A stretch of 62,544 nt of DNA from Bacteroidales bacterium (GTDB lineage: Bacteria; Bacteroidota; Bacteroidia; Bacteroidales; VadinHA17), in NCBI GenBank assembly GCA_034004335.1, contig JAVEWX010000002.1, positions 1 through 62,544 of the forward strand, written 5' to 3'. Shown in pieces: positions 1,585 to 55,808 of this stretch. The notes beneath the pieces were generated by a model that made no database searches, was not told where the DNA came from, and saw only the letters and a list, made by a program, of their open reading frames with translations. Every line of letters begins with the position of its first letter. Within the stretch, counting starts at the first letter, position 1. A program made the translations under genes and the position numbers.

Positions 1585-1875
1585 TTCCTCGTTCTTCGTT
1601 CCTCGTTCCTCGTTCTTCGTTCCTCGTTCCTCGTTCCTCGTTCCTCGTTTAGGGTTTAGAGTTCTGAGTTCAGGCTATGCCAGCCATAGCTGATGGAGTC
1701 AGCATCTGCTGGGTTGCGTGTTACGGGTTGCGGATATATGGGTGGAAGCTGAAGGATGAATCACTATGGTTTTGAGGGACAGGCCACAGGTCGTTAAGAC
1801 TTCAAAGACAGCCCGAAGGGCGTCAAGACAGGGCGAAGCCCGTATGGACAATTCCGATTACCGATAACCGGTGGA
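1585..1875. repeat. Heptanucleotide mosaic element, locus A (inverted relative to loci B, C, E)
   Basis: 1585-1675 is 13 in-register heptads: (TTCYTCG)x9, TTTAGGG, TTTAGAG, TTCTGAG, TTCAGGC. A hairpin module lies at 1679-1714. GGGTTGC GTGTTAC GGGTTGC lies at 1711-1731. Two 20-nt hairpin units lie at 1805-1844. CGATTAC CGATAAC lies at 1855-1868. Confidence 0.9.
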
Positions 1876-1953
1876 AAATAAGTATTAATAAGTATCTGCC
1901 GGTAATTGTTAATATCTACTTTTGGGGCGGAAAACAAAAAAATCAGTCTTATC

Positions 1954-3201
1954 GTGGATATTTTTGACAAAATCAGATCGAACAGGGGTGCATTGGGACA
2001 ATACCAGATGCAGGCTCATGGGTACTTTACATTTCCGAAGCTCGAGGGTGTGATAGCCCCGAGGATGAAATTCATGGGCAAGGAGGTTTTAACATGGAGT
2101 CTCAACAATTATCTGGGACTGGGTAATCATCCTGATATCAGGAAAACGGATGCAGAGGCGGCTGCACAGTACGGACTTGCTTACCCGATGGGTGCAAGGA
2201 TGATGTCGGGACAGACATCCGTTCATGAAAAATTTGAAAGGATGGCTGCTGAATTCACCGGGAAGGAGGATGCATACCTGCTCAACTATGGTTACCAGGG
2301 TATGGTCTCGATCATTGACTCCCTGCTCGACAGGCGTGATGTAGTGGTCTATGACTCCGAGTCGCATGCCTGCATAATCGACGGCCTGAGGCTTCACATA
2401 GGAAAGAGGTTCGTTTTCCCGCACAACGACATTGAAAATTGTGAGAAGCAACTGCAGAGGGCAGAGAAGCTGACCAGTGAAACAGGCGGAGGAATACTTG
2501 TCATCACTGAAGGGGTGTTCGGAATGGCCGGTGACCTCGGGAAGCTCGATAAGATAGCCGCTCTCAAGAAGAAATACAAATTCCGTCTTCTCGTTGATGA
2601 TGCTCATGGATTCGGAACCATGGGCAATACAGGAGCCGGTACGGGTGAACACTTTGGCGTGCAGGATGAGATAGATGTCTATTTTGCCACCTTTGCCAAA
2701 GCGTTCGCAGGAATAGGAGGATTCGTATCGAGTACCAGGGATGTCATCAACTATCTTCGCTACAACCTGAGATCGCAGATATATGCCAAGTCGTTGCCGA
2801 TGGCAATGACATTGGGAGCCATCAAGCGACTTGAGATGATGAAGACCAATCCGGAACTCAGAGAGAAGCTCTGGGTAATAGTAAGGGCCCTTCAGAAAGG
2901 GCTTAGGGAGGCCGGATTCAACCTTGGCAATACCGAGTCCCCGGTAACGCCGGTGTTCCTCAAAGGAGGCATCCCGGAAGCTACCCAGGTCACATACGAT
3001 CTGAGAGAGAACTATGGTATCTTCTGTTCAATAGTCATCTATCCGGTTGTTCCAAAGGATGTGATCATGCTTCGGATAATCCCGACAGCCGTTCATACCC
3101 TCGAGGATGTCAACTATACGATTAAGTGCTTCAAGGCGGTCAAGGAAAAACTCGAGAAGGGTCTTTACCCGAAGGAAGTAGCCGATTTTACAAAAAGATA
3201 A
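1954..3201 (+). CDS. PLP-dependent alpha-oxoamine synthase family acyltransferase (KBL/AONS/serine-palmitoyltransferase-like)
   Basis: ORF 1906..3201. The conserved N-terminus starts at in-frame GTG 1954 (VDIFDKIRSNRGALGQY..HGYFTFPKLEG). Motifs LNNYLGLGNHP, DDAHGFG and the PLP-lysine context ATFAKAF are present. Substrate specificity cannot be read from the sequence. Confidence 0.8.
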   Translation: MDIFDKIRSNRGALGQYQMQAHGYFTFPKLEGVIAPRMKFMGKEVLTWSLNNYLGLGNHPDIRKTDAEAAAQYGLAYPMGARMMSGQTSVHEKFERMAAEFTGKEDAYLLNYGYQGMVSIIDSLLDRRDVVVYDSESHACIIDGLRLHIGKRFVFPHNDIENCEKQLQRAEKLTSETGGGILVITEGVFGMAGDLGKLDKIAALKKKYKFRLLVDDAHGFGTMGNTGAGTGEHFGVQDEIDVYFATFAKAFAGIGGFVSSTRDVINYLRYNLRSQIYAKSLPMAMTLGAIKRLEMMKTNPELREKLWVIVRALQKGLREAGFNLGNTESPVTPVFLKGGIPEATQVTYDLRENYGIFCSIVIYPVVPKDVIMLRIIPTAVHTLEDVNYTIKCFKAVKEKLEKGLYPKEVADFTKR

Positions 3202-3233
3202 CCCGCAAAGCCCAAAGGCATCCTTCAATAATG

Positions 3234-5748: not shown

Positions 5749-6662
5749 GGAGGCTTTTCGCGGTTCTGACTGTTGTGCTTTTGATCGCACCTGCAACGGT
5801 GTCGGGACAGGAGTTGCTGTGTAATGTCCAGGTGACGGCGCAGCGTATTCAGGGATCCAACAGACAGGTCTTCCAGACGATGCAGCGCGACATATATGAG
5901 TTCATGAACAACACCGTCTGGACCAACCATGTATACAGCTATGCCGAACGCATCGACTGCAACATAATGATAAACCTTACCGAGCAGCTGTCGGCCGATG
6001 AATTCAGGGGAACCCTGCAGGTCCAGCTCAGGCGGCCCGTGTACAACACAACATACAATTCCACCATACTGAACTTCATCGACAACAACATACAGTTCAG
6101 GTATGTGGAGTTCCAGCCACTCGAGTTCGATCCCAACAGTCACAGGTCAAACCTGGTGTCGTTGCTGGCATATTATGCCTACATGGTTATTGGCTTCGAT
6201 TACGATACCTATTCTCCTGAGGGGGGTACCGAGTTTTTCCAGATAGCGGAGAAGATCGTCACCAATGCCCAGAGCGCACCGGAAACAGGGTGGAAACCTT
6301 ATGACGGAACCCGTAACCGCAACCGCTACTGGCTTGTCAAGAATGTGCTTGACCGTCAGTACCAGATGGTCAGGATGTTTGTCTATGAGTATCACAGGAA
6401 GGGACTTGACATGATGGAGTCGAGGGTCAACGAGTCGAGAACATCAATAGTGGAGAGCCTTAGATTGTTGCAGCAGGTATACCGGACAAGGCCCGATCCC
6501 TTCATGTACTATATGCAGATAGTAATAGAGGCCAAGACCGATGAACTGGTCAATATCTACAGCAAAGCCTTTGCCGAGGAGAAGAGCAGGGTGGTACAGA
6601 TACTGACGGAAATCGACCCGGCCAACAAGGCAAAATACGAAAAGATACTGAGTACAACATAA
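5745..6662 (+). CDS. DUF4835 family protein (named PorD, T9SS-associated, in some annotations)
   Basis: Signal peptide MRRLFAVLTVVLLIAPATVSGQ. ATG 5745 overlaps the coaB stop (ATGA). Conserved coaBC-DUF4835-recN synteny. Confidence 0.65.
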   Translation: MRRLFAVLTVVLLIAPATVSGQELLCNVQVTAQRIQGSNRQVFQTMQRDIYEFMNNTVWTNHVYSYAERIDCNIMINLTEQLSADEFRGTLQVQLRRPVYNTTYNSTILNFIDNNIQFRYVEFQPLEFDPNSHRSNLVSLLAYYAYMVIGFDYDTYSPEGGTEFFQIAEKIVTNAQSAPETGWKPYDGTRNRNRYWLVKNVLDRQYQMVRMFVYEYHRKGLDMMESRVNESRTSIVESLRLLQQVYRTRPDPFMYYMQIVIEAKTDELVNIYSKAFAEEKSRVVQILTEIDPANKAKYEKILSTT

Positions 6663-8340: not shown

Positions 8341-8372
8341 TCAATGGTTAACGATTTGCGATTTATGAAATG

Positions 8373-8550
8373 GGTACCAGGTGTCAGGTATCCGGCGTCC
8401 GGCATCCGGCATCCGGCATCCGGCGTCCGGCGTCCGGCGTCAGCTCTAAACCCTAAACCCTGAACGAAGAACGAAGAACGAAGAACGAAGAACGAAGAAC
8501 GAAGAACGAAGAACTGGCGACCAGTAACAAGCAACCAGCAACCAGATACC
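8373..8550. repeat. Heptanucleotide mosaic element, locus B
   Basis: 25 consecutive in-register heptads (8373-8547): GGTACCA GGTGTCA GGTATCC (GGCRTCC)x6 GGCGTCA GCTCTAA ACCCTAA ACCCTGA (ACGAAGA)x7 ACTGGCG ACCAGTA ACAAGCA ACCAGCA ACCAGAT. These are followed by ACC and the fabI ATG. Confidence 0.95.
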
Positions 8551-9387
8551 ATGTCAAACGGATTACTTAATGGAAAGAAGGGCATCATTTTCGGTGCGCT
8601 GAATGATAAATCAATAGCCTGGCAGGTCGCCCTAAAAGCTCACGAGCAGGGCGCTAAGCTGATACTTACAAACGCTCCTGTGGCCATGAGGCTGGGAACA
8701 ATAAACGAGCTGGCTGATATTACAGGCAGCAGGGTTATTCCGGCTGATGCCACAAGCATGGATGATCTCAGGCTCCTTTTTGACGAAGCAATGAAGGAAT
8801 TCGGCGGAAAAATCGACTTCGTACTTCATTCAATCGGTATGTCACCAAATGTCAGGAAGGGAATACCGTATCCCGAGATAAGCTATGAGAATATGCTCAA
8901 AACCCTTGACATATCGGCGCTCAGCTTTCACAGGATACTACAGATTGCCTACAGGATGGACGCTATCAATGAATGGGGATCGGTTTTGGCCCTCAGCTAT
9001 GTGGCTGCCCAGAGAACCCTGGCAGGGTATAATGACATGGGTGATGCCAAGGCCCTGCTCGAATCCATTGCCAGGAGTTTCGGTTACATTTACGGCAGGG
9101 ACAGGAAGGTAAGGGTTAACACTATATCCCAGTCACCAACTCCGACCACTGCCGGGGCCGGAATATCGGGCTTCGACAGCCTGACCGACTTCTCGGACAG
9201 GATGTCACCGCTCGGCAATGCAACGGCAGAGGAGTGCGCCAACTACTGCGTGGTGCTGTTCTCCGATCTTACCCGCAAGGTTACAATGCAGAACCTTTAC
9301 CACGACGGTGGCTTCTCGAGCATGGGCATGAGTCAGAGGGCGATAGAGCAGTACAATAAGAGCTTCAATGAGTGTATATGCGACTAG
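8551..9387 (+). CDS. fabI: Enoyl-[acyl-carrier-protein] reductase (NADH) FabI
   Basis: N-terminus LLNGKKGIIFGALNDKSIAWQVA and SDR fold, typical of Bacteroidota FabI. Confidence 0.85.
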   Translation: MSNGLLNGKKGIIFGALNDKSIAWQVALKAHEQGAKLILTNAPVAMRLGTINELADITGSRVIPADATSMDDLRLLFDEAMKEFGGKIDFVLHSIGMSPNVRKGIPYPEISYENMLKTLDISALSFHRILQIAYRMDAINEWGSVLALSYVAAQRTLAGYNDMGDAKALLESIARSFGYIYGRDRKVRVNTISQSPTPTTAGAGISGFDSLTDFSDRMSPLGNATAEECANYCVVLFSDLTRKVTMQNLYHDGGFSSMGMSQRAIEQYNKSFNECICD

Positions 9388-18591: not shown

Positions 18592-19986
18592 ATGAAAAAG
18601 ACTATCTATATTCTATTCACAATCGCATTGTTCGCAGGGATATTCTCTTCCTGCAACAAGGATGTGCTCGAACCGACACTGGCACAGTCCAGAGCGGTGG
18701 AGGGCAGCCTCAATACGGTTGAAGATGTTAAGGGTATCCTGTACGGAGCCTATAACAGGATGACGTCCACTACATATTACGGTCGCGACTATATCATCCA
18801 TGGTGAGATAAGGGGTGACAACTGCTTCTCAAATGGTAACTCCGGCCGTTTTGTTACTGAGGCCAAAATGATATATACCAATACTTTCGGTGGATTCTGG
18901 TCACAGATTTACACAGTTATTGCATCTGCCAATATCATCATCGGACTCGACCCGGCTAAGATTTCGGGTGATGCCGACGTGCTCGATCACTACAAGGGAC
19001 AGGCCTATGCAATAAGGGCCATGGCTCATTTCGACCTGCTAAGGTACTACGGCCAGCAGCATGTTACAGTGACAGGAGATCCACTGGGTGTACCGTATAT
19101 TAAGGTATACAAAGGAGAGGACTTTGCTCCGGCAAGACAAACCGTAGCCCAGAACAGGCTCGACATCTATGCCGACATAGTCGATGCCCTGGCACTGATG
19201 GATCCTGCTCTGGATGATGATTCGAAGGAACTGATGACATATTACGGTGCACAGGCTCTCAAGTCGAGGGTTGCCATCTACTTCGGTGACTGGGACGAAG
19301 CTATAGCAGCATGCACATCAGTTATCGGATCGGCCAGGTACAGCATTATTGATGGAGCCCAGTATGCCAACTCATTCCTTGTTGACGGCGCTGCCAACTC
19401 AATTTTTGAACTGGCATTCAGCTCAACCGACAACGCTAACATCAACGGTCTGCAGTACATCTACAGGGGTCCTTCCTACGGTGACGTTGAGGTCCTCGAG
19501 GATCTGTACAACTGCTTTGAGGCTGGCGACGTAAGGGCTGCAGCTGACATGATCGGCCCGGATCCATATCCTACAGTCGTAAGGCCGTACATCAACATTG
19601 GCAAATATCCTTCATATGACTATTCCGACAATGTTCCCATTCTTCGTTACGAGGAGGTTATCCTGAACTATGCCGAGGCCCTGTGGAGGAAAAACAATGC
19701 CGATCCGAATGCACTTACCCAGCTTAACCTGGTGCCTGCCAAGAGGAACGCCACAGCCTATGCGGCAATCAATGAGGATAATATTCTTCTTGAGAGAAGG
19801 AAGGAATTATGCTTCGAGGGTATGAGGTTTCACGACCTGATGCGTACCGGAAGGGATATTCCTCTGGTTGATGCATTCAAACAGACACACGGAGGCCCGG
19901 AATATGGCGACTATAAGATGGCCTTCCCGATACCTTTGGGAGAGATGCAGGCCAACCCGAATATGGTACAGAATAAGAGTTACTAA
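18592..19986 (+). CDS. SusD/RagB family nutrient-binding outer-membrane lipoprotein
   Basis: Lipobox FSSC. RagB/SusD blocks ILRYEEVILNYAEAL and ERRKELCFEGMRFHDLMR. Confidence 0.9.
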   Translation: MKKTIYILFTIALFAGIFSSCNKDVLEPTLAQSRAVEGSLNTVEDVKGILYGAYNRMTSTTYYGRDYIIHGEIRGDNCFSNGNSGRFVTEAKMIYTNTFGGFWSQIYTVIASANIIIGLDPAKISGDADVLDHYKGQAYAIRAMAHFDLLRYYGQQHVTVTGDPLGVPYIKVYKGEDFAPARQTVAQNRLDIYADIVDALALMDPALDDDSKELMTYYGAQALKSRVAIYFGDWDEAIAACTSVIGSARYSIIDGAQYANSFLVDGAANSIFELAFSSTDNANINGLQYIYRGPSYGDVEVLEDLYNCFEAGDVRAAADMIGPDPYPTVVRPYINIGKYPSYDYSDNVPILRYEEVILNYAEALWRKNNADPNALTQLNLVPAKRNATAYAAINEDNILLERRKELCFEGMRFHDLMRTGRDIPLVDAFKQTHGGPEYGDYKMAFPIPLGEMQANPNMVQNKSY

Positions 19987-20013: not shown

Positions 20014-20047
20014 GAGGGTGATCCGGAAGGGTCACCCTCTTTTTTTT
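20014..20047 (+). terminator. Rho-independent terminator after the SusD-like gene
   Basis: GAGGGTGA..GGAA..TCACCCTC stem-loop followed by T8. Confidence 0.7.
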
Positions 20048-20074
20048 GCTGCTTCGCAGCACAAGGGGATAAAT

Positions 20075-20193
20075 GTAATCGGTAATCGGTAATCGGTAAT
20101 AGATGGCCGGCGGCCGGCGTCCGGCGACCCTGAACTCAGTACTCTAAACCCTAAACGAAGAACGAAGAACGAAGAACCATCAACCCGCAACCC
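20075..20193. repeat. Heptanucleotide mosaic element, locus C
   Basis: 17 in-register heptads: (GTAATCG)x3 GTAATAG ATGGCCG GCGGCCG GCGTCCG GCGACCC TGAACTC AGTACTC TAAACCC TAAACGA (AGAACGA)x2 AGAACCA TCAACCC GCAACCC. The array ends at the stop codon of the convergent gene. Confidence 0.95.
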
Positions 20194-20957
20194 TATCCCT
20201 CAATTCTCCTTATCGCCCTTAGCAGGTGAGTATACCTGCCAAGGTCATCGCGATAGATGCCGGTATGGTCAATGCGATCGATCCTTACCCTGCCAGATGC
20301 GTGGATGATCAGACCCTGCGAGATGAAGAGTCCGACGTGCGAAATCCTGCCCACCTCGTTATCAAAGAAGAGGAGGTCTCCCGGGACTGCCTCATCGAGA
20401 AAGTTAATTGAGATACCTTCCTCAACCTGTCTGAAGCTGTCTCTCGGGATTGATATGCCATGTATTTTGCAGACAAGCTGTGTCAGCCCGGAGCAATCCA
20501 TACCCGAAGGTATCCGTCCTCCCCATAAATAGGGACTGTTAAGAAAACGCATAGCTGTGTCGGCTTTTGTTTCATTTACGGAGACATAGCTCTCTGCAAA
20601 ATTCTCCGATGCTTTAAATACATCGCCGGCCAGCTTGAATGTCCTTGCATTGAAATCAGGTTCATAAATCTCGCAACCTGCTTCGAGTATTAACTTTGTA
20701 CCGTCTGCACGATAGCATCGCAGGGCCCTGTTGAGTACATGTCCTTTAATGACCCCGTCTGACGCCACAGGCTGCAGATGGTCTCCGTCGACCCATCCGC
20801 TATAGTTGTCAAATAGCGTATTTACTTTTAGCCAGTTCCCGGTCTTTTCAGTGACGAGGTATTTTTCTCCGAAAAGCAGCTGACTCAGCATTTCCGATTT
20901 ATGGGATGGTGCTGCTCTCAACGGCACAAACACATTATTACAGAAGAATAGTTTCAT
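20193..20957 (-). CDS. NlpC/P60 (C40) cell-wall peptidase with N-terminal SH3-like domains
   Basis: Catalytic DCSGLTQLV context, downstream His (ISHVGLF), SH3b-like N-terminus. Confidence 0.8.
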   Translation of the reverse strand: MKLFFCNNVFVPLRAAPSHKSEMLSQLLFGEKYLVTEKTGNWLKVNTLFDNYSGWVDGDHLQPVASDGVIKGHVLNRALRCYRADGTKLILEAGCEIYEPDFNARTFKLAGDVFKASENFAESYVSVNETKADTAMRFLNSPYLWGGRIPSGMDCSGLTQLVCKIHGISIPRDSFRQVEEGISINFLDEAVPGDLLFFDNEVGRISHVGLFISQGLIIHASGRVRIDRIDHTGIYRDDLGRYTHLLRAIRRIEG

Positions 20958-23202: not shown

Positions 23203-23203
23203 T

Positions 23204-23502
23204 TTGGGGTTCTGGGTTCAGGGTTCAGGGTTCAAGGTTCAAGGTTACACCTTCGGTCGTGAGCTCGCCCCGACAAGTCGGGGCTCGGTTCAAGGTTCAA
23301 GGTTACTCCCTTCGGTCGTGAGCTCGACCGGCTTCAGGTGCTCCCATTCGGTCGCGAGCTCGTCGCTTTGCGCCTCGGTTCGCCGGTCTCGGTTCAGGTT
23401 TTGCTAGCCATAGCTGACGGAGTCAGCGTCGGCTGGGTCGCCGGATGCCGGCCGCCGGCCGCCTGGTACCTGGTACCTGGTACCTGGTACCTGATACCCG
23501 TA
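23204..23502. repeat. Heptanucleotide/hairpin mosaic element, locus D (inverted orientation, largest copy)
   Basis: GGGTTCT (GGGTTCA)x3 AGGTTCA AGGTTAC at 23207-23248. ~40-nt subrepeats at 23229-23267 and 23287-23326, with a partial copy at 23341-23362. Hairpin module at 23403-23438. CCGGATG (CCGGCCG)x2 and (CTGGTAC)x4 CTGATAC extend up to 23497. Confidence 0.9.
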
Positions 23503-24138: not shown

Positions 24139-24164
24139 TCCGGATTCAACAATTGAGTTGTCTG

Positions 24165-31749: not shown

Positions 31750-31762
31750 TACTGCATATAAC

Positions 31763-32206: not shown

Positions 32207-32230
32207 ATTAACCAATAAAAATAAAATAAA

Positions 32231-32554
32231 ATGGGAAATCTTAATTTATTCTATTTCATGGCTCAGCCTTCGGAAGATGCGAATCCGCTTATGACCTTTT
32301 TGCCTCTTATACTGCTGTTTGTGATCTTTTATTTCTTTTTGATACGTCCGCAGGTGAGGAAACAGAAAGAACTGTCGAATTACAGGAGTTCCCTGCAGAA
32401 GGGCGATAAAATTGTTACAACTGGAGGTATCTACGGTAAGATTGTTGAAATAAAGGATAACGTAGTAACCGTTGATGTTGGCTCCGAAGTAAGGATGAAA
32501 ATAGACAAGAGCGCCATACTCAAGGATCCTACCGACATTCAGCAGAAACAATAA
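32231..32554 (+). CDS. yajC: Preprotein translocase subunit YajC
   Basis: Single TM helix followed by IRPQVRKQKE..LQKGDKIVTTGGIYGKIVEI. Confidence 0.85.
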   Translation: MGNLNLFYFMAQPSEDANPLMTFLPLILLFVIFYFFLIRPQVRKQKELSNYRSSLQKGDKIVTTGGIYGKIVEIKDNVVTVDVGSEVRMKIDKSAILKDPTDIQQKQ

Positions 32555-32561
32555 CCCTGGC

Positions 32562-33572: not shown

Positions 33573-34165
33573 GGGTAGGTGTTACCGGAGGAATAGGTAG
33601 CGGAAAGAGTTCCGTATGCAGGATGTTCAGCACCCTCGGAATACCTGTATTTGACGCTGATCTGGAAGCCAGAAAGATAATCGATGGTGATCAGGATGTG
33701 TTGAAAGAGCTTTCTGAGATAGCGGGACTGGACCTGCTGGCCTCAGGTGTACTCGACAGGAGGCTTCTGGCCTCACTCATTTTCAACGATCCCGTTAAGC
33801 TTGAGAAGGTTAATACACTGATCCATCCACTTGTTTTTGATGCATTTGAATCATGGTGCCTTCATTGCAGGGCTCCCTATGTAATACTCGATGCGGCTAT
33901 TCTGTTCGAAAGCGGTGCAGACAGGCTTGTTGACAGAACCATAACCGTGATTGCCCCCCGGAATGAGAGAATTGAGAGGGTAGTTGCAAGAAGTGGTCTC
34001 TCACCGGCCGAAGTGGAAGCCAGGGTCAGAAACCAGTATACCCAGGAACAACTGATGAGCAGGTCTGACTTCATAATCGACAACAGCGAACGGAAAATGA
34101 TAATACCGGCAGTCCTGGATATTCACACCAGGCTCCTGGCTGAATCGGCTAATATATCAAGATGA
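33569..34165 (+). CDS. coaE: Dephospho-CoA kinase
   Basis: P-loop [12 protein letters not shown]. The start overlaps the ybbR-like stop (ATGA). Confidence 0.9.
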
Positions 34166-34890
34166 GCAGTATGGCCAGATGGATAGGAGGCGGGCTAGGC
34201 TGGCTCGCGGGGGGGCCACTGGGTGCCCTGCTCGGATTTATTATAGGGTCGGTAATTGACAGGACAAGGATCGACACAGTACCATATGGGCACGGAACGG
34301 ATCGAACGACCCCGGGAGCATTCGGCATGAGCCTGCTGGTACTGGTGGCAGCCGTTATGAAGGCCGATGGCAGGGTCGTTAAGTCTGAACTCGACTATGT
34401 AAAGAATTTCTTCGTAAGGCAGTTCGGTACTGAAGGTGCGGGAGAGGCCCTGCACCTGCTGAGGGACATTCTCGATCAGGATATACCGGTCAGGGATGTT
34501 TGTCTGCAGATAGCTTCCAATATGGATTACTCCTCAAGGCTGCAGTTACTGCACATGCTGTATGGAATATCGGCAGCAGACGGTCGCCACGATGCCTCCG
34601 AGCTAAAGATGATTGATGCCATTGCAGGTTACCTGGGAATAAGGGAAGCTGATCAGGTCTCAATCCGCAGCATGTTTGTATCCGAAACCGATTCGCTCTA
34701 CAAAATTCTGGAGATAGATCGTAATGCCACTGACGAGGAGGTGAAGAGGGCTTACAGGAGAATGGCAATGAAGTATCATCCCGATAAGGTCAGCCATCTT
34801 GGTGAAGATTTCAGGAAAGCTGCCGATGAGAAGTTCAAAAAGGTTAATGAAGCCTATAAAAAGATAAAATCAGAGCGAAATATGGTATAA
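34162..34890 (+). CDS. DjlA-like co-chaperone (TerB-like domain plus C-terminal J domain)
   Basis: N-terminal TM helix, TerB-like middle, J domain [30 protein letters not shown]. Confidence 0.7.
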
Positions 34891-34959
34891 TAATGCCATT
34901 GTCAAATGCTATTTGCAGTTTCTTGATTATTTTTGTGTTCCACCAAACAACAGAGTGAT

Positions 34960-35523
34960 ATGAATTTAAAGGATCTACTGGCCATTTCCGGAGAGAGCGG
35001 GCTGTTCCGTTTTGTAGCCCAGGGCAGGAATGCCATCATTGTTGAGCATCTTGATACTGGAAAGAGACAGACGGCGTCTTCTACGGCCAGGGTCAGTTCA
35101 TTGGAGGATATATCAATCTTCACCGATAGCGAGGAGATAAAACTCAGCCTGGTTTTTGACAGGATATGGGATAAAGAGAGGGGAGGAACCGCGCCCGATC
35201 CCAAGAAGGCTTCCCCTGATATCCTTGACAGCTACTTCTCAGAAGTGGTGCCGGAATATGACAAGGAAAGGGTTTATCCTTCAGACATTAAAAAGGTCCT
35301 GATGTGGTATAATACCCTTCACAGGCTAAACCTGCTCGTAAAGGAGGAGGAGAGTGCTGAAAAAGATCCGGAACAGGAAACGCACAGGCCGGAAACCAAG
35401 GCTGAAACACCGCCTGAACCCAAAAGACCCGTCAAAGTCCCGGAGAAGAAGAAAACTGTGAAAAAGGCGACAGTCACCCCGGCTAAAAAACGCATGACCA
35501 CAGCACCGAGGAAGCAGGGCTGA
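34960..35523 (+). CDS. DUF5606 family protein with Lys/Pro/Glu-rich C-terminal tail
   Basis: MNLKDLLAISGESGLFRFVAQGRNAIIVEHL.. matches the conserved Bacteroidota family. A TATTTTTG box lies at 34928-34935. Confidence 0.6.
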   Translation: MNLKDLLAISGESGLFRFVAQGRNAIIVEHLDTGKRQTASSTARVSSLEDISIFTDSEEIKLSLVFDRIWDKERGGTAPDPKKASPDILDSYFSEVVPEYDKERVYPSDIKKVLMWYNTLHRLNLLVKEEESAEKDPEQETHRPETKAETPPEPKRPVKVPEKKKTVKKATVTPAKKRMTTAPRKQG

Positions 35524-35629
35524 GGAGGTTTTAGTTAAATTTAGTTAAGCTGGAATAGGCTTGCCCCAGGAAAGGTCTAATAGCTGTAAATTTACATAAG
35601 CTAATACTCCGGCCTTTATCCATATCCCA

Positions 35630-37057
35630 ATGTGTCGTGCCCTTGCAATCTGTTTCGGGAGACCCTTCCCGGTAACCTGTGATGCCGGTTCAAAGGCTGA
35701 CAGGCTTATTATTGCAGGGTTTCTTCTTGTAATCCTGTTTTTCGCCCGTAGCACTCAACTGACAGCGCAGGTCTCTGTCAGACCCGCCCCTGCACTGGGT
35801 TTCGAAGATCGAATTGCAGCATATGTCGACACCGTGAGAATTGTAGACTGCCATGAACATCTTGCTGATCCCAGATTTGTCAGGTACCTCAGCTTTCTTG
35901 ATTTCATGCTTCTTCTGCATCAGTTCAACTACAATGATCTTATTTCAGCAGGTCTTCCAAAAAGACATTTCGACAGGCTCTTTACACAGAGAACAACCCC
36001 GGTGACAAAATGGGACCTGATAGAACCCTATTGGCAAACCTCATTCAATACATCATACAACAGGATATCAATTATTGCAGCCCAGAGGATCTACAATGTG
36101 GATGACATTAACCGCAGGACGGTAGATACGCTCTCCCGTCGAATTGCCAGGGCATACCAGGATCCTGACTGGACTAACAGGGTATTGAAAGATATGTCGG
36201 GCATTGACTATATAATCCAGGATGGCGATGAGATCCTTACCGACATAGATAATGTACTGTACGTTAAAAGATTCACGGAATGGTTGAGTGTCAGGTCAAG
36301 GGGCAGAATAGACTCACTGGCCAGGAGACAGGGGAACCCGATAGGGACTCTTGAAGAATTCGTGGCGTCAATGGAGAATGAATTCATGGTGGCATTAAAG
36401 CGAGGGATTGTCGGCGTCAAGATAAACATGGCCTACTACAGAACTCTCCATGTTGACAATGTTTCCATAGACGAGGCGCGAAGGGTTTTCAGAAGCCTGA
36501 GAAACGGAGGTGACAGATATGTGCTTACATGGCAGGAGGCTAAACCGTTGCAGGACTATATGTTTCTCGAGCTTGTCAAGCTATCCAGGGACAATCGCAT
36601 GCCGGTAGTAATACATACGGGACTCCAATCGGGTAATGGCAACATCCTTGAGAACTCAAATCCATTGCTGCTGGCTAATATTTTCCTTCGATTTCCGGAA
36701 GTCAGGTTCGGGCTGTTCCATGGCAGTTATCCCTTTGGGGGAGAGGTATCGAGCCTGGCCAAAAACTTCCCTAACGTGTATATTGATCTTAACTGGATGT
36801 ATGCAATCTCACCCTCCTACAGTGAGCGATATCTCAACGAATGGCTGGAGACCGTTCCGGTGGGAAAAATTATGGGATTCGGGGGCGATTCGCGGATTGC
36901 TGAAAATGTTTATGGAGGAGTTGAGGTTGCCAGGGAAATAATAACCAATGTCCTTGTGGAAAAGGTCAGAGATGGATATTTCTCGGAACAGGAGGCAATT
37001 ACTGTTGCCAGGATGATACTTCGCGACAACGCGATAAAATTCTACAACATCCGGTAA
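35630..37057 (+). CDS. Amidohydrolase-superfamily metal-dependent hydrolase with N-terminal signal/anchor
   Basis: VDCHEHL metal-binding motif, VIHTG, TIM-barrel hydrolase length. Substrate unknown. Confidence 0.55.
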   Translation: MCRALAICFGRPFPVTCDAGSKADRLIIAGFLLVILFFARSTQLTAQVSVRPAPALGFEDRIAAYVDTVRIVDCHEHLADPRFVRYLSFLDFMLLLHQFNYNDLISAGLPKRHFDRLFTQRTTPVTKWDLIEPYWQTSFNTSYNRISIIAAQRIYNVDDINRRTVDTLSRRIARAYQDPDWTNRVLKDMSGIDYIIQDGDEILTDIDNVLYVKRFTEWLSVRSRGRIDSLARRQGNPIGTLEEFVASMENEFMVALKRGIVGVKINMAYYRTLHVDNVSIDEARRVFRSLRNGGDRYVLTWQEAKPLQDYMFLELVKLSRDNRMPVVIHTGLQSGNGNILENSNPLLLANIFLRFPEVRFGLFHGSYPFGGEVSSLAKNFPNVYIDLNWMYAISPSYSERYLNEWLETVPVGKIMGFGGDSRIAENVYGGVEVAREIITNVLVEKVRDGYFSEQEAITVARMILRDNAIKFYNIR

Positions 37058-37180
37058 CAGGCCTGGAAGCGGGTTACGGCCCTGCACATTTTCCCTTGTT
37101 TATACCCCGATTAATGCCGGGAAATCTTCAGAATCGTGAATTCGGTCACCTTAGAATCATTGCCCAATTTTGAATTATGT

Positions 37181-37188
37181 TAATTTTG
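37181..37188 (+). promoter_or_regulatory. Candidate -7 promoter box (TAnnTTTG) for speB
   Basis: TAATTTTG, 22 nt upstream of ATG 37211. Confidence 0.35.
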
Positions 37189-37210
37189 ATGCGGATAAAC
37201 TGCACCCGGA

Positions 37211-38062
37211 ATGATAAACTTCGGAGGATCAGAGATCATTTATACATACAATGAGTCGGAGATAATTATTGTTCCCGTACCTTACGATTCCACGAGTACC
37301 TGGATAAAGGGGGCCGATAAGGGGCCCGGGGCAATACTTGAAGCATCCTGTAACCTTGAGTTTTATGATATCGAGACCGGCACTGAAGCCCACAGGAGGG
37401 GAATATTTACCCTGCCCCCGGTGGCTGCTGACTCAACGCCGGAGGCGATGGTTGAAACTGTAAGGGAGCGGTGTCAGAAGATTTACAATGAGAAGCGATT
37501 CCCTGTAGTGATAGGAGGGAATCATTCAGTCAGTATCGGTGCCATGAAGGCAGCTTCCATAAGCTATGATGATCTGACAATACTTCAGATAGATGCACAC
37601 GCTGACCTCAGGCAGGAATATGAGGGTTCTCCCCTGAACCATGCCTGTGTCATGGCCAGGGCGCGTGAAATGGCACCCATTGTACAGGTCGGGATACGCA
37701 GCATGAGTCTCGATGAAATTCCCTATGCCGACAGATCAAGGATGTTCTGTGCCCACGAATTGTGGAGTGACAATTTGCTTTGGGACAGAGCTCTAAGTCT
37801 CCTAACAGAAAATGTATATCTCACCATTGATCTCGATGGCTTTGACCCGGGAATAATGCCTTCAACAGGAACACCCGAGCCGGGAGGACCCCACTACCGG
37901 GATATAATGAATTTTTTACGGGAGGTTATCACCGGAAGAAACCTGGTAGGCTTTGACATCGTTGAACTCTGTCCCTCGCCTCATAACAAGGCGCCGGACT
38001 TCATGGCGGCGCGTATTCTCTACCAGATCTTGAGTTACAGGGAGTTCAAGGCTTCCCTTTAG
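37211..38062 (+). CDS. speB: Agmatinase (arginase/ureohydrolase family)
   Basis: Mn-ligand blocks GGNHSVS, DAHADLR and IDLDGFDP. Confidence 0.85.
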   Translation: MINFGGSEIIYTYNESEIIIVPVPYDSTSTWIKGADKGPGAILEASCNLEFYDIETGTEAHRRGIFTLPPVAADSTPEAMVETVRERCQKIYNEKRFPVVIGGNHSVSIGAMKAASISYDDLTILQIDAHADLRQEYEGSPLNHACVMARAREMAPIVQVGIRSMSLDEIPYADRSRMFCAHELWSDNLLWDRALSLLTENVYLTIDLDGFDPGIMPSTGTPEPGGPHYRDIMNFLREVITGRNLVGFDIVELCPSPHNKAPDFMAARILYQILSYREFKASL

Positions 38063-38825
38063 CCTCCTCCCAGATGACATTCATCTCTTCCAGGGTCATG
38101 TCATGGAGTGAGCGGCCCTTTTTGATGGTCTGCTCCTCAAGGTAACGGAACCTTTTGATGAACTTCTTGTTCGTCCTTTCAAGGGCAGCCTCGGGATCGA
38201 CATTGTAAAGCCTGGCAGCATTGATAACCGAGAAGAGCAGGTCACCGAATTCAGCCTCTGTATTTGCCTGGTCTTTTTTCCCGATCTCCTCCTTCAGTTC
38301 TCCGAGCTCTTCATCTATCTTGTCCCATATCTGGTCCCTGACCTCCCAGTCGAAACCCACTCCCCTGACCTTCTCCTGGATGCGGGTTGCCTTGACCATT
38401 GCCGGCAGCGTTCTGGGAACACCCGACAAAACAGCCTTATATTCTTCAGATTCGGTCATCTTGAGCTGCTCCCAGTTCTGAAGCACCTCCTCCGATCCGT
38501 TCACCTTCACTTCACCAAAGACATGAGGGTGCCTGTAAACAAGTTTTTTGTTTATGCCTCTCAGGACATCTCCAATATCGAAAAGACCCTTCTCGCTGCC
38601 AATCCTTGCATAAAACACCAGGTGAAGCATAAGGTCTCCCAGTTCCTTCTTAATCTCCTCATTGTCACCCTCGAGGATCGCATCAGCAAGTTCATATGTC
38701 TCTTCAATGGTAAGCTTCCTCAGCGATTCGTTGGTCTGTTCCCTGTCCCAGGGACATTTTTCCCGGAGTTCATCCATGATTTCAAGGAGTCTCCTGAACT
38801 CAGATATTCTATTGTCGTCTTTCAT
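38046..38825 (-). CDS. mazG: Nucleoside triphosphate pyrophosphohydrolase MazG
   Basis: Tandem MazG domains, CPWDREQT and EEx2E motifs. ATG 38825 (MKDDNRISEF) preferred. The 3' end overlaps the convergent speB by 17 nt. Confidence 0.85.
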   Translation of the reverse strand: MKDDNRISEFRRLLEIMDELREKCPWDREQTNESLRKLTIEETYELADAILEGDNEEIKKELGDLMLHLVFYARIGSEKGLFDIGDVLRGINKKLVYRHPHVFGEVKVNGSEEVLQNWEQLKMTESEEYKAVLSGVPRTLPAMVKATRIQEKVRGVGFDWEVRDQIWDKIDEELGELKEEIGKKDQANTEAEFGDLLFSVINAARLYNVDPEAALERTNKKFIKRFRYLEEQTIKKGRSLHDMTLEEMNVIWEEAKGKP

Positions 38826-42403: not shown

Positions 42404-44179
42404 ATGAAAACGCAAGTTATTGTTGGACTCGGAAGCTGCGGAATAGCAGCAGGAGCCGGAAAGGTTTATGATGTCCTTTTGAATATTAATAAGGAGAAGG
42501 GTGCTGATTTCTCCCTGTCCCGGACAAGTTGTATCGGGATGTGCTACAGAGAGCCGCTGGTTGAGGTTATTGATGAGCGCGGGTCGGTGATTTATGGCAA
42601 TATCGATGAGGAAAAGGCCCGGGAAATAGTTACCAGGCACCTGATAAACAAGGAGATAATAGAAGAGTGGATTGTCAGATCAGATAAGATTGCCACCAGT
42701 GATGATACCTTTTTCAGCGGTCAGATCAAGATTGCCCTGAGGAATTGCGGCATAATTGACCCTGAAAAAATCGAGGAATATGAGAAGATGGGCGGATACA
42801 AGTCCCTTGAGATGATAGCCGTGGATAAAATCCCGTCAGAAAAAGTTGTGCAGATGGTAATAGACTCGGGACTGCGGGGCAGGGGAGGAGGCGGATTCCC
42901 CACGGGCCTGAAGTGGAAGCTGACTCTCAACAGCAAATCGGATGAGAAATATATCATCTGCAATGCTGACGAAGGTGATCCCGGGGCTTTCATGGACAGA
43001 TCATTGCTGGAGGGCGACCCTCACTCTGTACTGGAGGGCATGATAATAGGAGCCTATGCCGTAAAAGCATCTGAGGGCGTCATCTACTGCAGGGCAGAGT
43101 ACCCCCTTGCCATAAAGAGGCTTAACATAGCTATAACCCAGGCCCGGGAAAAGGGCTACCTGGGGAAAAATATTGCAGGAATTACAGGGTTCAATTTCGA
43201 CCTTTTTGTCAAGGAGGGCGCCGGAGCCTTTGTTTGCGGTGAGGAAACGGCCCTGATGGCCTCGGTCGAAGGTAAAAGGGGTATGCCTTACAAGAAGCCC
43301 CCCTTCCCTGCTGAATCGGGACTCTGGCGTAAACCTACCAACATTAACAACGTTGAGACCTGGGCCAACATACCATGGATAATCTCAAACGGACCTGAGA
43401 AATACGCAGCGTACGGCACAGAGAAGAGTAAGGGAACCAAAGTTTTTGCCCTTACCGGAAAGATAAGGAGGGGCGGCCTGGTGGAGGTGCCGATGGGGAT
43501 CACCCTCAGGGAAATAATCTACGAATTGGGTGGGGGCATCCAGAATGACCGTCGTTTTAAGGCAGTACAGATGGGAGGCCCGTCGGGTGGCTGCATACCT
43601 GCCGCCCTTATTGATACTATTATTGATTATGAGTCTGTTACCTCAACCGGAGCCATCATGGGTTCCGGCGGCATGGTGGTGATGGACGAAACGACCTGCA
43701 TGGTTGACATCGCCCGGTTCTTTCTCGATTTCACATACAAGGAATCATGCGGGAAATGTACTTTCTGCAGGGTCGGAACCAAAAGAATGCTGGAAATACT
43801 GACCCGCATCTGCGAAGGTGAGGGCAAAGAATCTGATCTCGAGCTGCTCGAGGAACTGGCAGTACAGATTAAGGACAGTTCACTCTGCGGACTCGGACAG
43901 ACGGCACCCAATCCCGTGCTGACAACCCTGAAGTATTTCAGGAATGAATACCTCGAACACATTGTCAACAAAAAATGTCCCGCTGGCATCTGTACCAAAT
44001 TGCTGACATACGAGGTTGTGCCGGATAAGTGTACCGGTTGTACGGTATGCGCAAAGAATTGTCCGGTGAATGCCATCAGCGGCGAGAGAAAGCAGGTGCA
44101 CCTGATCGATCAGGCTGTATGCATAAAGTGTGGTGTCTGCTTTACCAAATGTACATTTGATGCCATCAGGAAATACTAA
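42404..44179 (+). CDS. NuoF/HydB-like NADH-FMN subunit with N-terminal Trx-like domain and C-terminal 2x[4Fe-4S] ferredoxin domain
   Basis: GRGGGGFPTGLKW (FMN), EGDPGAFMDR (NADH), SCGKCTFCR (N3 cluster), two CxxCxxCxxxCP motifs at the C-terminus. Confidence 0.9.
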   Translation: MKTQVIVGLGSCGIAAGAGKVYDVLLNINKEKGADFSLSRTSCIGMCYREPLVEVIDERGSVIYGNIDEEKAREIVTRHLINKEIIEEWIVRSDKIATSDDTFFSGQIKIALRNCGIIDPEKIEEYEKMGGYKSLEMIAVDKIPSEKVVQMVIDSGLRGRGGGGFPTGLKWKLTLNSKSDEKYIICNADEGDPGAFMDRSLLEGDPHSVLEGMIIGAYAVKASEGVIYCRAEYPLAIKRLNIAITQAREKGYLGKNIAGITGFNFDLFVKEGAGAFVCGEETALMASVEGKRGMPYKKPPFPAESGLWRKPTNINNVETWANIPWIISNGPEKYAAYGTEKSKGTKVFALTGKIRRGGLVEVPMGITLREIIYELGGGIQNDRRFKAVQMGGPSGGCIPAALIDTIIDYESVTSTGAIMGSGGMVVMDETTCMVDIARFFLDFTYKESCGKCTFCRVGTKRMLEILTRICEGEGKESDLELLEELAVQIKDSSLCGLGQTAPNPVLTTLKYFRNEYLEHIVNKKCPAGICTKLLTYEVVPDKCTGCTVCAKNCPVNAISGERKQVHLIDQAVCIKCGVCFTKCTFDAIRKY

Positions 44180-53756: not shown

Positions 53757-53905
53757 ATATTTACAGTGGTTTATATGTCATTAAGAACAGACTGTCAATC
53801 ATGCATGACAGTGCTAAGATATTCATAGTTCAACAATCCTGCCGAATATTTTACCCGGTACGATTGTGGCACTTTCATTTGATAATGTAATTTACCACCT
53901 ATGAT

Positions 53906-55768
53906 ATGTCTATGGGTGAGGCTGGAAAAAATATGAGGGAAACATTATGGTTGCCTGCAAGCCGGCATGAGCTCGAGTCCCGCGGACTGGAAGAGGTGGA
54001 TATCATCATCTTTACCGGCGACGCCTATGTTGATCATCCGTCGTTTGGTGCTGCGGTGATAGGCAGAGTTATGGAGGATGCAGGTGCAACGGTAGCCATT
54101 GTTCCTCAACCCAACTGGAGGGATGACCTGCGTGATTTCCGTAAGCTCGGCATACCCGCGATGTTCTTTGCCGTTACGGCCGGCAATATGGATTCCATGG
54201 TCAATCACTACACCGCAGCAAGGCGCCTGCGCTCCGATGACGCCTACACCCCGGGAGGAAAGTCCGGGTTCCGGCCCGATTACCCGACCATTGTATATAC
54301 TTCAATACTTAAGAGGCTATATCCCGATGTGCCTGTTCTGCTCGGGGGTATTGAGGCATCGATGCGAAGGTTGAGCCATTACGATTACTGGAAGGACAGT
54401 GTGGAACCTTCGATACTGATGTCAAGTGGCGCCGACATGCTGGTATATGGAATGGGGGAGGAACCGGTACGTGAGATCATAAGGCTGATGCGCAGAGGGG
54501 TCCCCTTCGGGTCGCTGAGAACCCTCCCTCAAACCGGTATCGTTGTTGAAAAAGATGAGAGACTGCCAGTGAACAAACACTGGAGGGATAAGTGGCTTGA
54601 CCCTCATGAAATGGTTGTTTCCGATAAAAATGCATTTGCCCGCAGTTTCGTGACATTCGAGAAGGAATCGCACAAGATTGAACAGGCAAGGCTTATACAA
54701 GAGTGTGGCGGCAGCCTGGTTGTTGTCAATCCGCCACTGCCCCCTGCTGATTCAGATGTGGCAGATTCAGTATACAGCCTGCCATTTACATATCTTCCGC
54801 ACCCCCGCTACCACGGGAAAGGGCCTATTCCCGCATTTGAGATGATAAGGAACTCGGTAAACATTCACCGTGGCTGCTTCGGCGGCTGCAGTTTCTGCGC
54901 GATTGCCGCCCACCAGGGTAAGCATGTTGTAAGCAGGTCGAAGGAGTCAGTGCTCGGGGAGATAGAAAAGATAAGCCTCCAGGAGGGTTTTCGAGGTGTT
55001 ATCAGCGACCTGGGGGGACCTTCCGCCAACATGTACGCCATGAAACCTGCAGACCGGTCGAAATGCCTGCACTGCAGCAGGCCGTCGTGTATATGGCCTT
55101 CGGTTTGCAGCAACCTGCAGGTATCTCATCGCGAGCTCAACGAACTTTATGAAGCGGCCCTGAGGGTGCCGGGAGTGAAGCAGATCCTCGTGGGAAGCGG
55201 GGTGAGGTATGACCTTCTGCTCAGCGAGTTTAACCGGCGCGCCGGTAAAGATGAGGATCTGTACCTGCGTAATCTTATTGAGAGGCATGTCTCGGGTTGG
55301 TTCAAGGTTGCTCCCGAGCATTCTGATGACGACGTGCTGAAGCTGATGCGCAAGCCTTCTTTCAGCCTGTTCAGGGTACTTAAGGTCAGGTATGATGCCA
55401 TAATGAGTAAGTCAGGCAGGAAGGGTCTGTTAGTTCCATACCTTATTTCGGCTCATCCGGGATGTACTGCGGCAAAGATGGAGGCTCTGGCCGGTGAGTT
55501 GCGGTCGCTCGACATAAGGCCCGAGCAGGTTCAGGAGTTCACACCGACGCCGATGACTCTCTCCACTACCATATATTATACCGGTTTTGATCCCTATACC
55601 GGCAGGAGGGTTTTTGTGCCCCGAAGCAGGAAAGAGAGGCAGGTCCAGAAGGATATGGTGTTCTGGTACCGGAGACCTCCGAAGGATTTTTCGGGAGGGA
55701 GGGAAAAGATAAAAGACAAAAGACAAAAGACAAAAGACAAAAGACAAAAGACAAAAGATAAAAGATAA
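53906..55768 (+). CDS. ygiQ: YgiQ family (UPF0313) radical SAM protein
   Basis: N-terminal block DIIIFTGDAYVDHPSFG. Radical-SAM cysteine motif CFGGCSFC. The last ~20 aa are encoded by the (AAAGAYA)n array. Confidence 0.85.
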   Translation: MSMGEAGKNMRETLWLPASRHELESRGLEEVDIIIFTGDAYVDHPSFGAAVIGRVMEDAGATVAIVPQPNWRDDLRDFRKLGIPAMFFAVTAGNMDSMVNHYTAARRLRSDDAYTPGGKSGFRPDYPTIVYTSILKRLYPDVPVLLGGIEASMRRLSHYDYWKDSVEPSILMSSGADMLVYGMGEEPVREIIRLMRRGVPFGSLRTLPQTGIVVEKDERLPVNKHWRDKWLDPHEMVVSDKNAFARSFVTFEKESHKIEQARLIQECGGSLVVVNPPLPPADSDVADSVYSLPFTYLPHPRYHGKGPIPAFEMIRNSVNIHRGCFGGCSFCAIAAHQGKHVVSRSKESVLGEIEKISLQEGFRGVISDLGGPSANMYAMKPADRSKCLHCSRPSCIWPSVCSNLQVSHRELNELYEAALRVPGVKQILVGSGVRYDLLLSEFNRRAGKDEDLYLRNLIERHVSGWFKVAPEHSDDDVLKLMRKPSFSLFRVLKVRYDAIMSKSGRKGLLVPYLISAHPGCTAAKMEALAGELRSLDIRPEQVQEFTPTPMTLSTTIYYTGFDPYTGRRVFVPRSRKERQVQKDMVFWYRRPPKDFSGGREKIKDKRQKTKDKRQKTKDKR

Positions 55769-55808
55769 AAGATAAAAGACAAAAGATAAAAGATAAAAGG
55801 AAAAAGCA
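55704..55808. repeat. Heptanucleotide array, locus F: (AAAAGAY)x13 plus two degenerate units
   Basis: 15 in-register units from 55704. The array overlaps the 3' end of ygiQ, whose stop is at 55766-55768. A GC hairpin AGCCTT-CGCC-AAGGCT and GATCGGT AGTCGGT heptads follow. Confidence 0.95.

Follow-up and report, generated by a model that had tools for sequence, protein, structure and literature searches.

The question raised by the complete 62,544-nt contig JAVEWX010000002.1 of a metagenome-assembled Bacteroidales bacterium (hereafter the window, which covers 62 kb of the genome) is how six of its intergenic spacers, loci A to F, came to be filled with tandem 7-nt units of several types, and whether these arrays are related to each other and serve a function. 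Analysis of the arrays and of their counterparts in related genomes revealed that loci A-D are true paralogues, that is, oriented copies of one composite element, that E is a permuted partial copy, and that F is not demonstrably a member of the family. The best explanation for the whole set, to which we assign a probability of about 0.55, is a lineage-specific, non-coding heptanucleotide satellite of intergenic spacers, comparable to the short tandemly repeated repetitive (STRR) and long simple sequence repeats and passive in its role. The six loci, their flanking genes and the order of their units are as follows.

1575-1880, minus strand: locus A, whole composite element, in the divergent spacer between the Mo-oxidoreductase gene (minus strand, ATG near 1495) and the KBL-like aminotransferase gene (plus strand); order on the minus strand GGTTATC GGTAATC, about 150 nt with GC hairpins, CCGCAAC-type units, 38-nt insert, core, (GARGAAC)9.
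8341-8550, plus strand: locus B, the entire spacer between the tandem recN-like and fabI genes; order GGTACCA-type, (CCGGCRT)7, TCTAAAC CCTAAAC CCTGAAC, (GAAGAAC)7-8, TGGCGAC CAGTAAC AAGCAAC CAGCAAC CAGATAC.
20066-20192, plus strand: locus C, in the convergent SusD-like/NlpC/P60 spacer, after the SusD-like gene and a terminator hairpin (20014-20048) and up to the NlpC/P60 stop codon; order (GGTAATC)3-4, GGCGGCC-type units, core, (GAAGAAC)3, CATCAAC CCGCAAC.
23203-23502, minus strand: locus D, filling the convergent 7TMR-HD/LolA-like spacer from stop codon to stop codon; order on the minus strand GGTATCA (GGTACCA)4, GGCGGCC-type, 38-nt insert, CCTGAAC, three hairpin modules, (CCTTGAAC/CCTGAAC) arrays.
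28497-28637, plus strand: locus E, the entire spacer between the tandem amino-acid kinase and ornithine carbamoyltransferase (argF) genes, made up of about 20 single-phase heptamers, with one base (C) left between the last of them and the ATG; order GATTTCA-type 5′ block, GAAGAAC, CTAAAC, then CAGTAAC CAGCAAC.
55704-55808, plus strand: locus F, (AAAAGAY)13 followed by AAAAGGA, in the convergent spacer that separates the gene of a YgiQ-family radical SAM protein from that of a NuoE-like protein; the 3′ tail of the former's open reading frame (ORF; stop codon at 55766-55768) is overlapped by the array, whose copy number varies between strains.

Tandem Repeats Finder (TRF) detected period-7 arrays at all six loci, with 7-nt units in 2.6-13.7 copies. 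Two scans of the window at lags 4-12, a strict one (at least 85% identity over 21 nt) and a relaxed one (at least 68% over 35 nt), gave 10 runs (515 nt) and 13 runs (973 nt), respectively, all of them at lag 7; the other lags gave no run at all. The relaxed scan covered loci B (8367-8554) and C (20063-20202) from end to end. In one fixed 7-nt frame, locus B resolves into an unbroken series of 30 units that starts at the recN stop codon and ends one base (C) short of the fabI ATG; loci C and E, as well as the 3′ part of A, also keep to a single phase. In C, for example, the units follow each other as CGGTAAT, CGGCGGC, CGGCGTC, CGGCGAC, CCTGAAC, TCAGTAC, TCTAAAC, CCTAAAC, GAAGAAC, CATCAAC and CCGCAAC. 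Once identical neighbours were collapsed, lag-7 identity was still 0.56-0.65, compared with at most 0.36 at the non-multiple lags 4-6 and 8-10, and adjacent unit types shared 3.9-4.6 of their 7 bases versus 2.5-2.7 when their order was shuffled, the observed values being reached in none of 20,000 shuffles. The original prediction, made from the sequence alone, that different unit types abut without losing the 7-nt register was thus borne out. Since the register is kept across unit types and neighbouring units resemble each other, each spacer behaves as one degenerate heptamer array, and the gradient of units shows that the array of each spacer diversified by point mutation and local re-amplification. 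The arrays also fall under the definition of long simple repeats, being head-to-tail repeats of a 1-11-nt unit that are longer than expected by chance. An array of clustered regularly interspaced short palindromic repeats (CRISPR) was ruled out because the units are 7 nt long and contiguous, while CRISPR repeats measure 23-50 nt and alternate with unique spacers of similar length.

The relationship between the loci was established from blocks that they have in common. The components of A and D that are needed for this comparison are listed here.

1584-1646, minus strand: (GARGAAC)9 array of A, ending about 90 nt before the start codon of the Mo-oxidoreductase gene; an AT-rich stretch occupies the interval.
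1645-1674, minus strand: 30-nt core of A, CCTGAAC TCAGAAC TCTAAAC CCTAAAC GA, common to C and partly to B.
1675-1712, minus strand: 38-nt insert of A, CCAGCAGATGCTGACTCCATCAGCTATGGCTGGCATAG, holding the hairpin GCTGA-CTCCA-TCAGC and corresponding in sequence and position to that of D.
1854-1874, minus strand: 5′ block of A, GGTTATC GGTAATC GG.
23399-23436, minus strand: 38-nt insert of D, CCAGCCGACGCTGACTCCGTCAGCTATGGCTAGCAAAA.
23252-23362, plus strand: three copies (starts at 23252, 23311 and 23347) of a non-heptamer module of D, TTCGGTCGYGAGCTCG, with the near-palindrome GCGAGCTCGC inside.

The arms at 1619-1674 in A and 20129-20184 in C are 88% complementary over 56 nt, and their inner 30-nt core is identical at 29 of 30 positions between 20129-20158 (plus) and 1645-1674 (minus), just as originally predicted. 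Locus B holds a variant of the ordered core, and the series common to A-D is CGGCGAC, CCTGAAC, TCAGWAC, TCTAAAC, CCTAAAC, GARGAAC. In both A and D, the 38-nt sequence CCAGCRGAYGCTGACTCCRTCAGCTATGGCTRGCAWAR lies at the junction of CGGCGAC and CCTGAAC, two units that are directly adjacent in C. The two insert copies, which are the only ones in the window, are 84% identical (the match extends over 55 nt). Neither this insert nor the three TTCGGTCGYGAGCTCG modules of D had been part of the original prediction. Because a 30-nt series of four different units and a non-repeat insert at the same junction are shared, the likeness of A-D is not convergent. Locus E carries GAAGAAC, CTAAAC and CAGTAAC-CAGCAAC units in a different order, and the AAAAGAY unit of F is unrelated to those of the other loci. 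Thus, the proposed oriented, dispersed composite element was confirmed for A-D, applies partially to E and is unproven for F. The proposed polar order of units likewise holds for A-D and recurs in two relatives described below (L027 and L020), but E, which runs GAAGAAC, CTAAAC, CAGCAAC, departs from it.

That six independent slippage products came to look alike by convergence under one polymerase or mutation bias is very unlikely. Similar units do recur elsewhere, (GARGAAC)3 being present in at least 120 unrelated metagenome contigs, many of them from high-GC organisms and many with the arrays set in NNNGAAC mosaics, and independent slippage could account for F, whose unit is unlike the others; for A-D, however, it is refuted by the 29/30 core of A and C and by the insert of A and D. 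Dispersal and slippage had originally been set against each other. Dispersal stands for A-D, but slippage is no alternative to it, because the indels between strains are multiples of 7, and both processes operate. Apart from lying in NNNGAAC mosaics, the metagenomic arrays are often paired with inverted GTTCYTC arrays around GC hairpins. Such pairs of (GARGAAC)n and inverted (GTTCYTC)n around a GC-rich hairpin were seen among L081-L200 (e.g. L082, L106, L107, L155, L167 and L185); they look like very long potential stem-loops after genes, in which heptamers extend terminator-like hairpins, and thus like a separate phenomenon.

According to a simple gene map, the window contains 50 genes, which leave 4,612 nt (7.4%) intergenic, and all six loci were found within this intergenic portion, as proposed. 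The arrays fill 6 of the 20 spacers of at least 80 nt, including five of the six longest. The proposal that they never enter conserved protein cores needs one qualification, since F alone overlaps an ORF, covering the last ~21 codons of the YgiQ-family gene (53906-55768, plus strand). This ORF runs into the AAAAGAY array, its low-complexity tail ending with REKIKDKRQKTKDKRQKTKDKR before the stop codon, and the match to its DUF3362 domain covers positions 1-53 of 151. Sixty nucleotides beyond the F array stands a further element.

55865-55883, plus strand: GGTGATC GGTAGTC GGTGG, short GGTxxTC-type heptamers weakly resembling the distal end of A.

This flank makes a link of F to the heptamer family no more than suggestive.

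The flanking genes are ordinary core genes at all loci, and the flanking proteins and their synteny identify the host as an uncultured Bacteroidales bacterium, not a heterocystous cyanobacterium. At locus A, the KBL-like aminotransferase gene (1906-3201, plus strand) has an orientation inverted relative to that in about 25 syntenic relatives (L003-L034 were compared), where it is divergent from a BamD/YfiO-like gene. Locus A sits at one edge of this inverted segment, and a flanking inverted repeat was not seen. Elsewhere, two inverted matches of ~100 nt, 73-76% complementary, were found between 42947-43173 and 59395-59621. They join NuoF-like/Fe-hydrogenase-type clusters at 41.9-47.9 kb (plus strand) and 56.1-60.3 kb (minus strand), which are paralogous operons in opposite orientation and unrelated to the heptamers.

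The reality of the arrays and the way in which they change were examined in independent assemblies of the same species (L201, L202 and L203, 99.3-100% nucleotide identity). L201 (Logan, ERR14964773) corresponds to window positions 23357-38531 without gaps, L202 is from the NCBI metagenome-assembled genome (MAG) GCA_964615355.1, and L203 is from Logan (SRR27710296). Locus E is identical base for base in all three, which derive from different samples, while part of D, part of C and F were also recovered independently. An assembly or polishing artefact is therefore refuted as an explanation of the arrays, all the more so as orthologous arrays occur in several related species. It is true that short-read assemblies often break inside arrays and that a related MAG (L030, 3021-3196) has a scaffold gap, a run of N, within an ATTCTGT heptamer array. 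The edges of arrays or modules are where short-read contigs of the species stop (1836, 23246, 23357, 55755, 55770, 55811 and 55884), as would be expected of modules present in several copies per genome. The first 31 bases of L202 (contig CAZTON010000095.1) begin with ACTCTTTCCCTACACGACGCTCTTCCGATCT, an Illumina adapter in the deposited MAG, and the match to the window starts from base 32. Exact-protein look-ups found no identical FabI or RecN proteins in other assemblies.

Comparison of strains and sister species revealed that copy number shifts by whole units. Locus F counts 13 units in the window but 11 in L212 (MAG GCA_964615355.1), a 14-nt indel within the species, and the length of the YgiQ ORF changes with this copy number (620 aa in the window, 625 aa in L212). 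In L212 the gene caller also predicts a 149-aa ORF antisense through the F array, which is probably spurious. In a sister species, whose ornithine carbamoyltransferase is 89% identical, the E spacer contains GATATCA/GATTTAC/GATTTCA heptamers and measures 99 nt or 71 nt depending on the sample, the difference of 28 nt being 4 units. Similarly, the D-orthologous array is (GGTATCA)4 in L217-L219 and (GGTATCA)5 in L220, a 7-nt indel. These differences demonstrate slippage. Contig L209 (SRR25572339) matches the window from 23246 to 20141 at 99.97% and then diverges into another 5′ half of C, GGTATTG GGTATTC GGTAATC ... (CGGCTTC)3 ... CCGTAAC ... CTCTAAAC CCTAAAC (GAAGAAC)3. This half may be an allele, or else a paralogue that was joined here in the assembly graph; in both cases it represents a further copy with the same polarity.

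The history of the arrays was traced in more distant genomes. In about 30 syntenic Bacteroidales MAGs, whose FabI proteins are 79-89% identical to that of the window (overall nucleotide identity about 68%), the recN-fabI spacer is 20-60 nt long, AT-rich and array-free in 29 of 30 cases; the exception, L020, has CGGCAAC/AAGCAAC heptamers before fabI. Over 1.3 Mb of relatives, 19 period-7 runs were counted, versus 0-4 for every other period. In the genus-level relatives L217-L221, in which the flanking genes are 68-78% identical at the nucleotide level, the D orthologue carries GGTATCA x4 (x5 in L220) directly 3′ of the LolA stop codon, the E orthologue carries GATTTCA x3-4 directly 3′ of the kinase stop codon, and the C-orthologous spacer contains GGTATCA arrays with the TTCGGTCGCGAGCTCG module. 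The GATTTCA-type 5′ block of locus E is orthologous to the arrays of these relatives, and the CCGGCRT, CTAAAC, GARGAAC and CAGCAAC blocks are absent from their D, E and C spacers, where the arrays measure 64-99 nt compared with 141-300 nt in the window. Since the arrays of the relatives are simple and lack the extra blocks, those at D, E and C are old, and the window species added blocks to them, which are now common to at least five of its spacers. Together, the array-free recN-fabI spacers and the simpler genus-level arrays argue for recent growth of arrays in the window species.

The TTCGGTCGCGAGCTCG module, which holds the perfect 10-bp palindrome GCGAGCTCGC both in the window (23252-23362) and in L217, L218 and L221, lies beside GGTATCA arrays in those three relatives, but in a different spacer (the C-orthologous one there, D in the window); a role as protein-binding site or as small mobile module is conceivable. 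In L027 (15015-15210), a 91-nt composite of four GGTTATC-type units, CTYAAGCTAAAYYC and three to four CAGACAA units is tandemly duplicated and ends 10 nt before an ATG. This duplicate, which lies in the interval from a stop codon to the following ATG, represents a higher-order repeat of the whole mosaic. L020 contains GATTCCA/GGTTTCA units, then AAAAAAC, then (CAGCAAC)4 CAGAA ATG. In both, the polarity is that of the window, with GGTWWYM-type units at the 5′ side and CAGCAAC/CAGACAA-type units at the 3′ side, adjoining a start codon. In each of the five tandem contexts (B, E, L020 twice and L027), the 3′-type units have the sense orientation and end 1-17 nt from the start codon.

According to the explanation that we favour, the passive satellite, units would be gained and lost by replication slippage, and point-mutated units would be re-amplified locally, giving the phase-locked gradient of unit types. 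Blocks of several units (CCGGCRT, the CCTGAAC-TCAGWAC-TCTAAAC-CCTAAAC core, GARGAAC, CAGCAAC and the 38-nt hairpin insert) would be copied between spacers by ectopic recombination, gene conversion or template switching that starts in heptamers common to the spacers, transposition being a less likely route. The arrays would lengthen the spacers as near-neutral filler, encoding nothing and having no conserved RNA fold. At fabI and the ornithine carbamoyltransferase gene, an A/C-rich, T-poor, start-codon-free and unstructured leader would be tolerated by the Bacteroidetes ribosome, which is independent of the Shine-Dalgarno sequence. The 3′ blocks are indeed A/C-rich, with 7-13% T and no ATG, GTG or TTG in 375 nt, and RNA folding predicted them to be unpaired. 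The repeats are real, their copy number changes in steps of 7, A-D are paralogous and the arrays persist at orthologous sites, while block copying and the near-neutral, passive role are the parts of the explanation that we infer from these observations.

Several points weigh against a passive satellite. Unit sequence, position and orientation are kept at orthologous spacers (e.g. GGTATCA directly 3′ of the LolA stop codon and GATTTCA directly 3′ of the kinase stop codon) though the flanking genes are only 68-78% identical. Such conservation exceeds what would be expected of a freely drifting neutral satellite and hints at constraint or homogenisation between loci. The sense orientation of the 3′-type units, 1-17 nt from start codons, would fit a leader function, and no donor-recipient pair or conversion tract was observed in the 62 kb covered. 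The conserved unit sequence, position and strand at orthologous spacers would be explained by a clade-wide, oriented cis-acting system, in which a putative Bacteroidales-specific binder would read, 7 nt at a time, the GGTATCA/GATTTCA units after stop codons and the CAGCAAC/GAAGAAC units before start codons, or these units would serve as a Shine-Dalgarno-independent landing pad for ribosomes, uniformity being maintained by directed gene conversion; we consider this rather unlikely.

Heptamers with regulatory roles exist elsewhere: 7-bp repeats control hmw1A of Haemophilus influenzae, and TTTTGAT heptads are present in the ctx promoter of Vibrio cholerae. A more general form of the functional explanation, the main rival of the passive satellite though clearly the less probable of the two, is that the arrays are cis-regulatory, as iterated RNA or DNA sites for a factor contacting about 7 nt per subunit (OB-fold, cold-shock, S1-like or a dedicated regulator) or as a copy-number "rheostat" for translation, transcription or termination. 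The sense-strand placement abutting start codons at B, E, L020 (twice) and L027, the conservation of unit sequence and position at the orthologous D and E spacers of the genus-level relatives and the polymorphic copy number are consistent with this, as are published hints of function in Nostoc and Beggiatoaceae; in Nostoc, deletion of a heptamer repeat altered recO and recF reporter activity (bioRxiv 10.1101/2022.06.06.494920). However, three of the six loci (C, D and F) are situated in convergent spacers with no downstream start codon, A lies upstream of a probable promoter, and unit types vary widely within one array. That fabI can do without the B array follows from its absence in 29 of 30 relatives, and a scan of 40 window proteins revealed no candidate binding protein encoded nearby. 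When 120 metagenomic (GARGAAC)n loci were examined in a crude test that relied on a home-made ORF caller, no strand bias relative to genes emerged in tandem pairs (11 sense versus 13 antisense), a noisy result because many arrays were placed "inside" probably spurious ORFs of high-GC contigs. In the orientation test on the relatives, the A+C-rich strand was taken as "forward", by which the 5′ and 3′ blocks of one element are labelled as opposite.

The roles originally proposed (a protein-binding array, an insulator or RNA structure) found no direct support. Folding z-scores relative to shuffles were between -0.2 and +1.9 for A, B, C and E, and -2.7 for D, where the hairpin modules account for it; the structured-RNA interpretation was dropped, as there was no general excess of structure and D alone went beyond the shuffles. 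A search of the whole window against Rfam returned no family at gathering score, and a search of A and D at E<=1 gave one spurious 16.7-bit match in D and nothing in A. The window contains no tRNA or tmRNA genes. A scan for sigma-70 promoters and terminators remained at chance level, apart from the terminator at 20014-20039, which is genuine and lies upstream of C. For the C-rich, G-poor, unstructured 3′ blocks after stop codons, a role like that of Rho-utilisation (rut) sites was also considered and set aside, C being already provided with an intrinsic terminator.

Mobility was considered as well. Repetitive extragenic palindromic (REP) units are imperfect palindromes of ~35 nt mobilised by REP-associated tyrosine transposases (RAYTs), and bacterial interspersed mosaic elements (BIMEs) are intergenic mosaics of enterobacteria, found at gene 3′ ends and between co-transcribed genes and composed of few motifs in a preferred order. 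In general terms, the window arrays resemble REP units and BIMEs, being intergenic mosaics of few motifs in preferred order; unlike them, they are built mainly of a 7-nt direct repeat, with palindromic or hairpin modules minor and confined to A and D, ~35-nt palindromic units not being the main block. In Nostoc, small dispersed repeats (SDRs) reportedly insert within heptamer arrays, and the 38-nt insert of the window, with its two copies, recalls these short (21-38 nt), hairpin-capable sequences. A non-autonomous mobile element of the miniature inverted-repeat transposable element, REP/BIME or SDR kind, containing internal heptamer satellites and served by a transposase elsewhere in the genome, is nevertheless unlikely. 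It would agree with the oriented copies of the same ordered modules in several spacers, with the insert at the same A/D junction, which resembles a small insertion element, and with the contig breaks at module edges, as for multi-copy sequence. Moreover, relative L022 has two inverted copies of CAGTAAC RAGGAAC CAGCAAC, identical at 20/21 and 19/21 positions to 8522-8542 of the window; in that genome they may mark the two ends of a mobile or invertible segment. On the other hand, the best terminal inverted match of the window loci is 6-8 nt, the mean of shuffled controls and so not beyond chance; no target-site duplication or clean empty site is visible in comparison with the relatives, whose spacers are shorter and not alignable with the window flanks, so that no insertion boundary can be defined; and the ends of the arrays coincide with stop and start codons, not with fixed termini. 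The 40 window proteins scanned include no transposase, RAYT, reverse transcriptase or integrase. The junction CTAAACCCTAAAC-N0-8-GAAGAACGAAGAAC had no match in 185,579 species-representative genomes, and neither the 28-nt core nor the 38-nt insert had one in viral contigs. Regarding the L022 copies themselves, they are located at 6133-6153 (minus strand) and 18933-18953 (plus strand), are at least 100 nt long each and lie about 4.2 kb apart, and each contains AACTAAC CAGTAAC RAGGAAC CAGCAAC TAGCAAC.

Intergenic heptamers have several precedents. The STRR of Calothrix PCC7601 were described as "three different tandemly repetitive heptanucleotides" (Mazel et al., 1990, as quoted in PMC4692102). 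As in these cyanobacterial repeats (Calothrix/Anabaena), the units of the window are tandem and 7 nt long, come in several types per genome and occur in many dispersed intergenic copies; their sequences and their Bacteroidales host differ, and the window shows a fixed 5′-to-3′ unit order and a shared non-repeat insert. TAACTGA heptamers and assemblages were found in Beggiatoaceae, cyanobacteria and five Bacteroidetes (MacGregor, 2015, PMC4679880). That study described single spacers with several heptamer types for Gramella and Aequorivita and, for Elizabethkingia, near-identical spacers that contain "larger assemblages of heptamer repeats"; it also noted shorter, repeat-free spacers in close relatives. 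The original statement that no such mosaic family had been described in Bacteroidota was therefore too strong. Like the window arrays, the TAACTGA repeats are intergenic, are often on the sense strand near a start codon and are regions where contigs end, but the window units, a phase-locked polar order and genus-wide persistence at orthologous sites were not described in that study. The intergenic GGGAATC/GGGGAYT heptamers of Xanthomonas and Nostoc vary in length between relatives (Rehm et al., 2015, PMC4692102); they too are over-represented in spacers and form some inverted pairs, but they are G-rich and quadruplex-forming, while the window units have no G-runs. Heptanucleotides were reported as the dominant long simple repeat in many bacteria or non-pathogens, with polymerase slippage over a contact of ~7 nt proposed as the cause (Mrazek, Guo & Shah, 2007, as cited in PMC4679880 and PMC4692102). 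As presented in those two papers, this is a statistical class rather than a sequence family, and multi-unit blocks shared between loci are not addressed. Neither strand of the window contained tandem CCCCA(A/G)T, TT(G/T)GTCA or CAACAGT, and TAACTGA was not found in tandem, with 4 single occurrences. Because the published units are not in tandem here, the window arrays are a new sequence family of a known, unexplained kind, the intergenic heptamer repeats. The additions made here are the single register across unit types, the polar order, the insert that proves paralogy, and the orthologous persistence with polymorphism in multiples of 7 nt at three levels of divergence.

Intergenic heptamers have been known since 1990, and both their role and the reason for the period of 7 are unexplained. 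The present data come from a different phylum and allow the arrays to be traced across strains, sister species and genus-level relatives, so that length polymorphism unit by unit and evidence for the copying of whole blocks between spacers are both visible. In practical terms, the arrays interrupt short-read assemblies, and in MAGs they give rise to spurious ORF calls that span the spacers. If the conservation of unit and strand holds genome-wide, it would argue for a function of these repeats.

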